Source: a virus
Taxonomy: Duplodnaviria > Caudoviricetes
Direction: 5' to 3' (one strand)
Length of the DNA: 64,000 nt
Virus record (IMG/VR): IMGVR_UViG_2974729571_000001
Coordinates: 29,788-93,787 of that record
Shown piece after piece: positions 41,704 to 61,228 of this stretch. The stretch's first letter is position 1. The number at the start of each line of letters is the position of its first letter. The position numbers were made by a program, and so were the translations under genes. The notes under the pieces were generated by a model, which saw nothing but the letters and a program-made list of their open reading frames with translations, was not told the origin of the DNA and made no database searches.

Positions 41704-42372
41704 TTATTTTCCAGTACTACCAAATCCTTCTGTACTTCTTTTAGTAGTACCAAGTTCTTCGAGAGTTTCAACTTCATCCCAAGTAATCTTCTCACGACGA
41801 CGAACAAGAAGTTGACAAACACGGTCGCCTTTCACATAAGGACATTCTTCTTTCTTAATTAACTTATTAAACTCTTGTCTTGCACACATAATAGAATTAT
41901 AAGCATTTTCGTGTTTAACACGTGTAACAATATCGTTAAAAGCATTACCAAAAGTACTAATAATTCTAATTAATTGACGAGAAGTACGATTCTTGAAAAT
42001 AACACGAAGTTCTCCTCTATAACCCCAATCAAGAGTACCAGGACTATTAGGCATATAAAAATCTGTTTTAGTATTGCTACTACGTGGGCGAAGTTCCATT
42101 TCATATTCATCAGGAAGAGCAAAATATAATCCTGTGTGAATAATAAATCTATCTTTGTCTGAATCATATTCTATACTCTTAGCATAGACATCACAACAAG
42201 CATCTCCTTCTCTACCATAAGTAGGTAATGGAACAGATTTATCTTCACGCCATACTTTAACAGAGACATCATCAATGTCTTGTTCTAGTTTTTGATAAAG
42301 TTCATCTTGTGTTAATAAACCAGCATTAAACTCAATAATAGCATTAGCTATTGCTTTACTTAATTTACTCAT
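41704..42372 (-). CDS. dut: Trimeric dUTPase
   Basis: All five motifs present: ACCDV, RPRSS, GTLDWGYRGEL, GDRVCQL, RSTEGFGSTG. Start MSKLSK at 42372. Confidence 0.9.
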   Translation of the reverse strand: MSKLSKAIANAIIEFNAGLLTQDELYQKLEQDIDDVSVKVWREDKSVPLPTYGREGDACCDVYAKSIEYDSDKDRFIIHTGLYFALPDEYEMELRPRSSNTKTDFYMPNSPGTLDWGYRGELRVIFKNRTSRQLIRIISTFGNAFNDIVTRVKHENAYNSIMCARQEFNKLIKKEECPYVKGDRVCQLLVRRREKITWDEVETLEELGTTKRSTEGFGSTGK

Positions 42373-42931: not shown

Positions 42932-44010
42932 ACATTAGCTAGAGCATAATTAAGAGCTTTAAGACTAGTATTGTAATCACCTTCAAATACTGTATTCTTC
43001 AAACGAAGTTCTTCTGTCTTATACTCTTTAACGTTAGAGAAATAACCAGTAACAGCATTATAAGCACCATAAGCTGTACCAGCTATTAGTCTTTGACCAA
43101 CACCTTCCTGATAATATTCAAAAGAATCACAGAGAGTATTTAGTTTCTGCATAGATATTCCAGCAGCTTCATAGGCAGAATTATCTCTACGGAATAGACC
43201 GTTATATAAAGACAATCCATCTACTCTCTCGAATTCTTCCCCCGTAAGGAAAGTTGCAGACAAATACTTTTTCACTTCTTCGTCTGATACTTTAGTTTTA
43301 TATAATACTCGATACATATCTTCTTCCTCTTCTATCTTACGTTCGGTAAGACCAAGTATTTCAGGAACAGTAAGTATCTTAGTATTGACACCTTTATTAT
43401 GTCTAAAAGATATATAACTTTCGGCTGATATTCTAGCTGCATGAAGTGCGTTCATACAAACAACTCTTATAGGAGTAATCATCGTTTGTACAGCACTACC
43501 ACCATCATGACTATTAGTAAAGACAAAGTAATGTTGAATAGTATCGTTTTTGCCACCAATATTAATATCTTTATCAAATGTTGCTGACATAAATATCTTT
43601 TGTCCATAACCAAAATATCCTGCACGGTCGAGTTTTACTCTACCACCAAGAGCATCATCAAAGAAGCCAAAAGCCATTTGATTTTGTACTACTTCGTATC
43701 GAGACTTTACTTTCCCAAGAGGAATATTAGTATCAGTACGATAAGTTGCAAACTCACCAGGAACATCAACAAATTCAAAGCCGTTAACTACATTAGGAAA
43801 AATAGAACCATCACGACTAGCACCATTATCGTGTGCTGGCATTTTAGCAGATAGCTGACATTTAGCAACTGTATAATCGAGTTTAGCTTTTACAATAGCT
43901 TCTTCTGTTGTCTTACAATCGCTAATGTCTATACCTATTTTACCTCTCCAAGCAATTCCTTTTGCTTTGAATTTACTTCTATAACTTGAATCTCTAAAGT
44001 TAAATTCCAT
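42922..44010 (-). CDS. DUF932/DUF945-family protein
   Basis: LG-V--RYEVVQN, FTNSHDGG, TPIRVVCMNAL and GTAYGAYNAVT motifs. Confidence 0.85.
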   Translation of the reverse strand: MEFNFRDSSYRSKFKAKGIAWRGKIGIDISDCKTTEEAIVKAKLDYTVAKCQLSAKMPAHDNGASRDGSIFPNVVNGFEFVDVPGEFATYRTDTNIPLGKVKSRYEVVQNQMAFGFFDDALGGRVKLDRAGYFGYGQKIFMSATFDKDINIGGKNDTIQHYFVFTNSHDGGSAVQTMITPIRVVCMNALHAARISAESYISFRHNKGVNTKILTVPEILGLTERKIEEEEDMYRVLYKTKVSDEEVKKYLSATFLTGEEFERVDGLSLYNGLFRRDNSAYEAAGISMQKLNTLCDSFEYYQEGVGQRLIAGTAYGAYNAVTGYFSNVKEYKTEELRLKNTVFEGDYNTSLKALNYALANVWE

Positions 44011-58781: not shown

Positions 58782-59136
58782 TGCATTTTAGTAAGAATCT
58801 ATTAATATTATCACGACATTTAAGTATATAACCTTTAACAGACAATCCTATCTTAAATGGAATATAACAACTAGGCATAACACAATAAGCATCAGTACAT
58901 CTAACAATCTTAGTAGGTCTACCATGACTATCTAGTGCACGAGTATATATTGTTTTAAAACCTTTACATGAGTACGAACGTTCAGATAACATAATAAGTT
59001 CATCACTATCTTTAGGTTTAAACTTATACATGTTATCATGTAGAACAATAGTTCCAGTAACAATCTGCATTATTACTTTCTCACGAGGAATCTTCTTTTC
59101 CTCATTTACCGCTGATAGTTTGAAACTTAATCCCAC
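58771..59136 (-). CDS. Hypothetical protein
   Basis: 121-aa ORF overlapping the helicase start. Confidence 0.65.
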   Translation of the reverse strand: MGLSFKLSAVNEEKKIPREKVIMQIVTGTIVLHDNMYKFKPKDSDELIMLSERSYSCKGFKTIYTRALDSHGRPTKIVRCTDAYCVMPSCYIPFKIGLSVKGYILKCRDNINRFLLKCNEF

Positions 59137-59140
59137 AATA

Positions 59141-59392
59141 TTAAGGTTTGACTATTTGGTTAACACTATACTGTACGCAACACGTTCCTTTACGGGGGAA
59201 TATCTTATATTTATCAGTATTCATAATTCTAGGTAATGGAGTAATTTCACAACATCTATCACTATGAACATCTACGATAATACAATGATAAGCATTAACA
59301 CATAAATCATGAGATATAACAGCTTTAAGTCCTTCAAAATATACATCAAAAGTACTATCAGGATTAACACATTGTTTTAAATCTACAACCAT
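59141..59392 (-). CDS. Small Cys-containing hypothetical protein
   Basis: Start MVVDLKQ at 59392. Confidence 0.6.
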   Translation of the reverse strand: MVVDLKQCVNPDSTFDVYFEGLKAVISHDLCVNAYHCIIVDVHSDRCCEITPLPRIMNTDKYKIFPRKGTCCVQYSVNQIVKP

Positions 59393-59393
59393 A

Positions 59394-59705
59394 TTAATTA
59401 GCTTTAGTTTTATATATTTCGTATAACTTACTAAATTCATCAGAGGGCATACAAACAATAGGAACATTAGTATGCATTTGTTCTTTAGGAACAATACAGT
59501 TTCTTGCAGTAACTATTCTATCATCTTCAACAAACATTGTTTCAAGAACTAGACAATTACCAGCATTTAATATTTCCTTACACTTAGGACAGATATAAAT
59601 AGTATCCGTACCAAACACAAGAAGCTCATCGCCACAAACTAGACATTTGCCAGTCGTGACAATGAGCTTACCATTATCTTGTTTAAACTCATTTAGCTTG
59701 GACAT
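59394..59705 (-). CDS. Zinc-finger protein
   Basis: CLVCG...CPKC. Start MSKLNEF at 59705. Confidence 0.65.
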   Translation of the reverse strand: MSKLNEFKQDNGKLIVTTGKCLVCGDELLVFGTDTIYICPKCKEILNAGNCLVLETMFVEDDRIVTARNCIVPKEQMHTNVPIVCMPSDEFSKLYEIYKTKAN

Positions 59706-59835
59706 AACTAGGAATACGTCTCCTTTCTTCCATTCTAATGAGTTTAATACTAGTACTTTCAAGTACATTAAGAGTAAAAGCTACTAATTTGTAACTTCTC
59801 TCACTTTTTCCAAGTTTAATTTTCTTCTTAATCAT
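59689..59835 (-). CDS. 48-aa basic peptide (MIKKKIKLGKSERSYKLVAF...)
   Basis: Translated by hand; fills the gap. Confidence 0.45.
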   Translation of the reverse strand: MIKKKIKLGKSERSYKLVAFTLNVLESTSIKLIRMEERRRIPSYVQAK

Positions 59836-59857
59836 TACGTTTAGTATTTAATTATTA

Positions 59858-60178
59858 TTATTTAATAGGAGCATCTGACCGCTCCGCTTCGCTCCGCTTA
59901 TTCCCCCGTAGAGGAGTTGTGAATTGTTTAACCTTTTGCTTAATTTCATCTATAATAGCTTTATTCTTATCAATACTATCGTTACTATAAAGATTATAAC
60001 TATGTGTTTCATCAATATTTCTATTAATATCAAGAACAAATAGATACATACTAATATAAGAAGTATTGTTAAGATTACAATTAGTATAAAGGTCACTAGA
60101 GAGTTTAGTACTATACAACAGACTAAGCTGTATTTTCTGTAACTCTCTAAACAATTTAGTAAATTCTTTCTTATTCAT
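59858..60178 (-). CDS. Hypothetical protein
   Basis: 106 aa. The C-terminal tail (PLRGNKRSEAERS) is dictated by the overlapping DNA motif and hairpin. Confidence 0.6.
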   Translation of the reverse strand: MNKKEFTKLFRELQKIQLSLLYSTKLSSDLYTNCNLNNTSYISMYLFVLDINRNIDETHSYNLYSNDSIDKNKAIIDEIKQKVKQFTTPLRGNKRSEAERSDAPIK

Positions 60179-60210
60179 GTCAGTATATTAGTTTTAATTA
60201 ATAATCATAG

Positions 60211-60235
60211 AAAAAGGAGCAGACGCTTCTGCTCC
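60211..60235 (-). terminator. Intrinsic terminator
   Basis: Minus strand GGAGCAGA-AGCG-UCUGCUCC followed by U5. Confidence 0.8.
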
Positions 60236-60268
60236 AAGCTAAATAATTAATATTTATAAAAGTCCTAA

Positions 60269-60342
60269 TTCTATCTCACGACAGTAATTTAAATTAGGGG
60301 TAAAAATTAGATTAAGTTCTGTTCTATCTCACGACAGTAATT
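60269..60342 (-). repeat. Two 21-bp direct repeats, each a CUGUC-GUGA-GAUAG RNA hairpin
   Basis: TTCTATCTCACGACAGTAATT at 60269-60289 and 60322-60342. Confidence 0.85.
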
Positions 60343-60377
60343 AATAAACTTGTATTAAACACAAATACTATGTATTT

Positions 60378-60462
60378 ATAGCTGACATTTTACGAAGAGG
60401 ATTTCCCTTACTTCAACCATTTGGTCAATGTTTCAACTTAGATTAGTCATCATCAGAGCTAT
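60378..60462 (-). ncRNA. Type I hammerhead ribozyme
   Basis: Minus strand AUAGCU-CUGAUGA-U-GACU(AAUCUA)AGUU-GAAA-CAUU[insert]AAUG-UC^AGCUAU. Full catalytic core, stems I-III and a GUC cleavage triplet. Confidence 0.75.
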
Positions 60463-60575
60463 CAAGAAAAGAAATAGTGCGATTCTCACGAACAGCACTA
60501 TTATAATTCCATAAAACCAATAAATACTATTCTCACGAATAATAGATATTACAATACGACAAATTTAATTTTAGT

Positions 60576-61148
60576 TTAACTAAAACAGATAAAACAAAAT
60601 TGGCAATTACTTATTATATATATCTTTGTATAATCTACACAATAAAAATCAGGACAATCTTTAAGAAACGATTCACATATTCTACGAGCTTCACCTTTAC
60701 TATTACCAGAGTAAAGAGTTTTAGCATTACCATTAAAAGACTTTCTTAGCTTATCATTCTTGTCTAGGAATACAAGATGATTTTCAGAACAATAGAATAC
60801 AGAATAAATCGGAGCTTTACTAGCTTCATATTTAGCAAGAAGTTTATCATAAGATTCTTTAGCACTGTCTCTCATATCACTAATATATTTGATATAAGAA
60901 AGCATAATACTATCCCATTGTTCAACAGCTTTAATCTTATCTTCAATAGAATACTTACCATCAAGAATATCTTCAAGAAGATTATTCAATCCTTTAACAT
61001 TAAGATTTTCTAAATCTTCAAGAATAGCTTTATTAAATTCTCCTTTAATAAAAGCCTTACGATAATCTTCTTTAATAGAATCAATAAGATTAACATCAGA
61101 ACCACTAGCTAAAGCACAAGCTAAAATAGCAGATATAATATCTTTCAT
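60576..61148 (-). CDS. Hypothetical protein
   Basis: 190-aa ORF whose 3' UTR contains the ribozyme cluster. Confidence 0.65.
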   Translation of the reverse strand: MKDIISAILACALASGSDVNLIDSIKEDYRKAFIKGEFNKAILEDLENLNVKGLNNLLEDILDGKYSIEDKIKAVEQWDSIMLSYIKYISDMRDSAKESYDKLLAKYEASKAPIYSVFYCSENHLVFLDKNDKLRKSFNGNAKTLYSGNSKGEARRICESFLKDCPDFYCVDYTKIYIISNCQFCFICFS

Positions 61149-61174
61149 TATAATAAATTTTTAAATTAGACAAT

Positions 61175-61228
61175 AAAAAACTCTACTAATATTACTCTAG
61201 TCTCACGACCTGAATAATCTTAATAGAG
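61175..61228 (-). terminator. Long imperfect terminator with GUGA loop
   Basis: Minus strand CUCUAUUAAGAUUAUUCAGGUC-GUGA-GACUAGAGUAAUAUUAGUAGAG followed by U6. Confidence 0.7.

Follow-up and report, generated by a model that had tools for sequence, protein, structure and literature searches.

A predicted type I hammerhead ribozyme with a branched stem III at the end of the terminal small-gene block of crAss002-like phages

The RNA encoded at 60462–60378 on the minus strand of the window (the whole 64,000-nucleotide stretch of viral DNA analysed here) folds as a type I hammerhead, and every element of the hammerhead could be read at its own coordinates. The hammerhead identity is strongly supported by the comparison of related sequences, and the covariation among them indicates that purifying selection acts on the folded RNA. 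We consider it probable that the element is a functional type I hammerhead variant, with an inserted U and a three-way junction in stem III, which processes the transcript at the end of a block of small genes. It adds a structural variant to a well-known ribozyme class; the class itself is not new. A preliminary description of this DNA had proposed a type I hammerhead that has one base inserted after A9 and whose stem III is branched, and the comparative evidence bore this out with the elements at the positions first assigned to them.

Genomic setting

The window is taken from a 93.8-kb virus record that has terminal repeats; it makes up the rightmost 64 kb, and the ribozyme lies ~3.5 kb from the right end of that record. 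By its sequence the window is assigned to a crAss002-like phage (Jahgtovirus). It shares 88% identity with Bacteroides phage crAss002, also Jahgtovirus, in which the corresponding segment is intergenic and carries no annotation. Homologues of the protein encoded upstream of the ribozyme were restricted, among the matches listed, to this crAss002-like genus-level group. The helicase gene was of no use as a synteny handle because it encodes a broadly distributed Dda-like helicase.

Hammerhead architecture

The elements of the hammerhead are given below in the order of the RNA, together with their behaviour in the related sequence types A–E.

60457–60462, minus strand: 5′ strand of stem I (positions 2.6–2.1); all six pairs covary in types A–D
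60450–60456, minus strand: core C3–A9, CUGAUGA; invariant in 55 distinct contexts except for one change of U7 to C
60449, minus strand: inserted U between A9 and G10.1; kept in types A–E
60435–60448, minus strand: stem II hairpin (60448–60445 with 60438–60435); 4 bp, 6-nt loop, G·U at 10.1–11.1
60432–60434, minus strand: core G12, A13 and A14; invariant in all types
60427–60431, minus strand: 5′ strand of stem III (15.1–15.5), paired with 60389–60385; compensatory replacement in type D
60415–60426, minus strand: hairpin IIIa of the three-way junction within stem III; hairpin kept in types A–D, with varying sequence and length
60394–60414, minus strand: hairpin IIIb, 4 bp, bulge, 3 bp and GAAAU loop; loop invariant in types A–D
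60390–60393, minus strand: junction strand GUAA, joining IIIb to stem III; invariant in types A–D
60384–60389, minus strand: 3′ strand of stem III (60389–60385) and C17 (60384); position 17 is never G
60378–60383, minus strand: 3′ strand of stem I (1.1–1.6), paired with 60462–60457; start of the predicted 3′ product

Both RNA ends lie in stem I, and stems II and III are closed, which satisfies the type I topology. The scissile bond is predicted between 60384 and 60383. Stem II is weak. The 10.1–11.1 pair of hammerheads is usually G-C and is quasi-conserved; here it was G·U in types A, C, and D and G-C in types B and E, with G10.1 invariant. Two changed pairs of stem II in type B still pair, one going from A-U to G-C and the other from G·U to G-C.

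Stem III contains a three-way junction made up of IIIa, IIIb, and the 4-nt GUAA joiner. The preliminary description had drawn two hairpins inside stem III; both were present, but the first is better read with 4 bp and a 4-nt loop, as the 5 bp and 2-nt loop given for it are sterically impossible. The IIIa loop is GUAA in types C and D. Position 60426 in IIIa showed a G/A/U polymorphism facing a U. The inner stem of IIIb showed compensatory changes from G-C to U-A in type B and from G-C to A-U in type D. The junction has no linker on two of its strands and a 4-nt linker on the third, a geometry in which IIIb is expected to fold back along stem III toward the core.

The contact between stem I and loop II is what makes natural hammerheads fast at cellular Mg2+. 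On inspection of types A–E we observed no conserved contact of this kind, as stem I has no internal loop and loop II has no covarying partner. Pairing of loop II with the flanks or with the inner loops was looked for by eye, and nothing covarying was found. A IIIb hairpin folded toward the core might replace the missing stem I/loop II contact.

The 13-nt substrate strand, which consists of the stem III 3′ strand, C17, and the stem I 3′ strand, has an exact second copy at 43851–43863 (minus strand) inside a 362-aa ORF. A second copy would be expected by chance at a rough value of ~0.02, and the type B and type C substrate strings occurred on that strand only at their own ribozymes. This site was rejected as a trans-target and taken as a coincidence, because the closed stem III could not take a substrate in trans and because types B and C were negative.

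Conservation and covariation

The 27-nt core was exact in 26 of the 26 loci fetched via the neighbouring protein (79–98% identical). Over 34 distinct 1.3-kb contexts, the segment 60462–60358 showed 3–6 variable columns per ~100 nt, and the flanking genes showed 10–17 per 20. The element was the most conserved ~100 nt of its neighbourhood in all relatives fetched. The sparse changes in close relatives fell on the cleavage-site base (C, A, or U), on one base of IIIa (G·U to A-U), and on one stem III pair (U-A to U·G).

A covariance model made from close relatives was searched against loci fetched via the DNA polymerase gene and gave the diverged types B and C. For types A–C (11 distinct sequences, 22 pairs), all 242 of the 242 pair cells held standard pairs, and 8 pairs showed compensatory change. 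This covariation was matched by 0 of 500 shuffles, and slid controls paired at 34–47%. All six stem I pairs covary, since the stem I sequences of types A–C are unrelated and the pairing is kept. Type D was found with a second covariance model, with a score of 71 bits in ‘Rudgehvirus jaberico’. Its stem I is a fourth sequence, its stem III has changed in a compensatory way with A15.1–U16.1 kept, and its position 17 is A; its inner IIIb is altered but paired, and its GAAAU loop and GUAA joiner are identical. Across the four sequence types A–D, stem I was wholly replaced yet remained paired, and compensatory changes were seen in stems II, III, and IIIb.

Over the 55 distinct contexts, position 17 was C in 50, A in 4, U in 1, and G in 0, and position 7 was U in 54 and C in 1. 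These variable core positions (7, and 17 as non-G) are exactly those that the hammerhead mechanism leaves free. Apart from the quasi-conserved 10.1–11.1 pair, every defining position behaves as the family requires. The preliminary description had made its assignment depend on core conservation in relatives, and the core was indeed invariant except at position 7, with a deletion in a single contig. This contig (L176:6836–6942) lacks the three core bases U2.1, C3, and U4 and is likely a dead copy or a sequencing error. A 1.8-kb contig with a coverage of ~1 (L216:61–179) carries a type A 5′ half and a type C 3′ end, its stem I is unpairable, and it is likely a chimeric assembly. The metagenome scan added only type C; its other returns were a chimeric contig of low coverage and a single chance match, present on two contigs.

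Chance occurrence and folding energy

The hammerhead descriptor (stem I of at least 5 bp, stems II and III of at least 4 bp, 0–1 inserted base, and wide loops) matched one site in the window when both strands were scanned, and 0 of 300 dinucleotide-preserving shuffles matched. By nearest-neighbour energy the hammerhead fold had a value of −12.3 kcal/mol and the MFE structure −13.9 kcal/mol, which places the hammerhead 1.6 kcal/mol above the MFE. The MFE z-score of −0.46 was uninformative. This result indicates that the hammerhead fold is accessible, because its energy is near the MFE, and that thermodynamics by itself does not pick out the fold.

Rfam models and known hammerheads

A comparison with the Rfam hammerhead models had been proposed as a check in the preliminary description, and these models did not detect the element. 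No Rfam hammerhead family reached the gathering threshold in the window, and no Rfam hammerhead match was obtained even at E up to 10 on 801, 141, or 111 nt of the window and type B. RF00163 gave no match in five crAss-like genomes, and RF03152 gave no match in the window. L299, a cousin without the inserted U, showed sub-threshold matches to RF03152 and RF00008. Because the covariation is decisive, we attribute the silence of Rfam to a limit of the models and not of the RNA.

Intergenic phage hammerheads are established and have been proposed to cut long transcripts into gene-length RNAs (PMC3088659). The element has the same topology, full core, A15.1–U16.1 pair, and non-G base at position 17 as the phage and bacterial type I hammerheads (RF00163 clan; PMC3088659), and like the phage examples it is intergenic and lies on the gene strand (PMC3088659). 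Unlike the phage and bacterial type I hammerheads, it has an inserted U after A9, G·U at 10.1–11.1 in three of the four types, a three-way junction in stem III, and no recognisable stem I/loop II contact.

The preliminary description had also stated that insertions after A9 occur in natural hammerheads, and published work agrees with this. The CChMVd plus hammerhead has an extra base after A9, and changing this base to U raises its activity (PMC3705267); the hammerheads of Penelope-like elements (PLE) retain a base between positions 9 and 10.1 (PMC4209133). The inserted base between A9 and G10.1 is thus shared by the element with both groups (PMC3705267, PMC4209133). In context and peripheral structure, however, they are unrelated to the phage element: the CChMVd hammerhead belongs to a plant viroid and is of type III, and PLE hammerheads belong to eukaryotic retroelements, have a minimal stem III, and are dimeric. 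The RAGATH-1 or pseudoknot hammerhead (RF03152) has a 1-bp stem II and a pseudoknot, whereas the element here has a 4-bp stem II and a pseudoknot was not detected. A RAGATH-1 identity was rejected, as stem II has four covarying pairs and RF03152 did not match. Hatchet ribozymes are described in a preprint as largely confined to Crassvirales, and we found no paper joining ‘crAss-like’ with ‘hammerhead’.

Hammerheads in other crAss-like phages

The second covariance model also detected a simpler hammerhead in phage cr110_1 (Delmidovirus), with the same inserted U, a G-C-closed stem II, and a plain stem III hairpin. In other Intestiviridae, this position upstream of the DNA polymerase gene is occupied by simpler hammerheads that likewise have the extra U. 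A type I hammerhead was present at most 8 kb upstream of the polymerase gene in 13 of 40 distant crAss-like loci (DNA polymerase 37–40% identical); every one of these hammerheads was on the gene strand, with no example on the opposite strand, and most had the extra U. Other structured inserts of 76–92 nt were observed in stem III at the same slot in L300:891–1007, L305, L313, L316, L318, L320:3349–3481, and L321, and the insert of the distant cousin L320 contains a GUGA-type hairpin. The various inserts of these distant cousins indicate that stem III is a recurrent site for added structure. By comparison of these sequences, the junction of types A–D appears to be one stem III addition that became fixed.

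Two side observations concern the DNA polymerase gene of the relatives. The DNA polymerase match was ~3.17 kb in L202, L203, and L205 in place of 2.19 kb, and the gene is ~1 kb longer in some relatives. In cr3_1 (MT774381, L232) the DNA polymerase gene is split, and a homing endonuclease is annotated inside the match in the RefSeq copy NC_055874. A loose pattern scan of viral contigs gave mostly chance matches, with two unrelated hammerheads among the matches listed. L081:4331–4385 and L095:5273–5350 are unrelated viral contigs with clean type I hammerheads; in one of them a U is likewise inserted after A9 and stem II is rich in G+C.

Surrounding module and transcription context

The hammerhead is part of a larger intergenic module, with the following features on the same strand.

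60525–60544, minus strand: GUGA-loop hairpin, the first one 3′ of the upstream gene's stop codon
60474–60501, minus strand: terminator-like hairpin with GUGA loop and a U-rich tail to 60463 that abuts stem I; hairpin and U run in types A–E
60364–60376, minus strand: small hairpin directly 3′ of stem I; invariant in type A, absent from types B–E
60264–60337, minus strand: spacer with two identical GUGA-loop hairpins (60337–60324 and 60284–60271)
60211–60235, minus strand: G+C-rich intrinsic terminator, predicted to end the 3′ product, ~35 nt before the next ATG (60178); equivalent in types A–E

The same layout was kept in types A–E. The stop codon of a small gene is followed by GUGA-loop hairpins (one or two) and a U run and then by the hammerhead, and 3′ of the hammerhead come a 90–170-nt GUGA-hairpin spacer, a G+C-rich terminator, and, after ~30–40 nt, the next ATG. 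The two identical hairpins and the terminator downstream of the hammerhead had been noted in the preliminary description, and they are present; the hairpin at 60284–60271 is nested in a longer stem (60298–60264). The spacers of types B–E contain GUGA-type hairpins, with unconserved sequence, and similar GUGA hairpins flank the ribozyme in all related types. The core octamer of the GUGA hairpin had 8 copies in the window against 1 expected, and six of them were on the minus strand within 59079–61208, around the ribozyme. The octamer was also seen at 41790 and 21117.

The terminator at 60235 is the sole strong minus-strand terminator in the rightmost ~7.4 kb of the window and the first minus-strand match above 52592. 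The ribozyme therefore marks the point where the terminal small-gene block stops, with the replication genes next. It is plausible from their position in the genome that these terminal small genes are early. The virion RNA polymerase transcribes the early genes of phi14:2, another crAss-like phage, and the long intergenic stretches of its early region yield large amounts of stable non-coding RNAs whose function is unknown (10.1101/2020.03.07.982082).

A short A+T-rich motif lies between the terminator and the next start codon (60179–60210) and recurs in types A, B, C, and E (L188, L190, L237); it may serve as a promoter or in translation signalling. A match to a Bacteroides-type promoter upstream of the hairpins was set aside, as on inspection it was not conserved in crAss002. 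Scans for sigma-70-type promoters stayed at chance level.

Contigs that span the ribozyme and cross the predicted cut site were found in two RNA-labelled wastewater libraries from different studies, covering 60330–60496 and 60264–60503. These runs were found via this stretch, and the assembled contigs carry no ends, strand, or level, with DNA carry-over possible; gaps in their coverage of the stretch carry no meaning. If the contigs represent RNA and not carried-over DNA, some molecules were uncut.

Alternative explanations

The point of the ribozyme could lie in its 3′ product, that is, in the 5′-OH end of a functional small RNA of ~173 nt, from 60383 to 60211, with the GUGA hairpins and the terminator. 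We regard this as unlikely. The layout of hammerhead, GUGA spacer, and strong terminator is kept in types A–E, the first ~20 nt of the product are invariant within type A, and stable non-coding RNAs reach high levels in the early intergenic regions of phi14:2 (10.1101/2020.03.07.982082), all of which would suit such an RNA. However, the spacer could not be aligned between types, the hairpin adjoining stem I was absent outside type A, and the ribozyme body was far more conserved than the product. The small RNA of about 170 nt in the preliminary description stands in its geometry but not as a conserved species, because the piece varies in sequence and in length (~100–170 nt) between types. Because its sequence is not conserved, an independent function of the piece is disfavoured, as is a sequence-specific small RNA.

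It is also conceivable, and in our judgement improbable, that the RNA is a hammerhead-like fold without catalysis, or one that has lost it, with the three-way junction serving as a site bound by a phage or host protein or as a transcription or stability signal. IIIb and its joiner are more conserved in sequence than stems I–III across types A–D, stem II is weak and closed by G·U, and Rfam gave no hammerhead match, which would agree with such a reading. Against it, the catalytically required bases are all invariant and variation is confined to the tolerated positions 7 and 17 (non-G), and sister lineages keep the hammerhead without the junction. This last result indicates that the hammerhead is the ancestral, selected part. 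Least of all do we expect a chance resemblance inside a DNA-level element (promoter, origin, or protein-binding site) that is conserved for other reasons. With its flanking hairpins and A+T-rich motifs, the region looks like densely regulatory DNA, and CUGAUGA alone has 22 occurrences in the window. This explanation is already contradicted by the covariation, in which pairing is kept while sequence is wholly changed; in addition, the homologues are all on the gene strand and the shuffled windows gave no match to the descriptor. A functional hammerhead variant that processes the transcript remains the best explanation.

Proposed role and significance

The most likely role of this hammerhead variant is to cut the RNA where the block of small terminal genes ends, and we infer cleavage in vivo. 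A polymerase that reads through the upstream hairpins would allow the ribozyme to fold and to cut between 60384 and 60383. The upstream RNA would keep the ribozyme body, ending in a 2′,3′-cyclic phosphate, and a 5′-hydroxyl would be left on the released piece of ~173 nt that ends at 60211. The upstream messages would thereby gain a fixed, structured 3′ end, and the RNA transcribed beyond would be uncoupled from them. Trimming of the mRNA of the upstream gene (60576–61148) had been suggested in the preliminary description; two terminator-like hairpins intervene between this gene and the ribozyme, and trimming is a function that we only infer. These hairpins lie directly upstream and could stop most transcripts short of the ribozyme.

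The RNase III sites of the T7 early genes need host RNase III and leave 5′-phosphate and 3′-OH ends. As in the role proposed here, an early multi-gene transcript is cut there between genes, and a protective hairpin is left on the upstream 3′ end. Unlike the T7 sites, the element would cut itself without a host enzyme and give 5′-OH and 2′,3′-cyclic phosphate ends, so that the analogy is functional only.

A more tentative proposal, to which we give a rather low probability, is that the stem III junction is a hammerhead peripheral domain of a new kind, acting as a tertiary stabiliser or as the docking site of a phage or host factor that switches cleavage on or off. If this is true, transcript processing would be a regulated step in very common human gut phages. 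A branched stem III that serves as an alternative stabiliser or regulatory handle would also be a new structural solution for a well-studied ribozyme.

The current Rfam models miss a whole set of Intestiviridae hammerheads, which means that ribozyme counts in the gut virome are underestimates. The element offers a tractable case for learning what phage hammerheads do. It is fixed in crAss002, which is in culture with its host Bacteroides xylanisolvens; its position coincides with a defined transcription-unit boundary; and nature supplies variants that have the extra stem III domain as well as variants that lack it.
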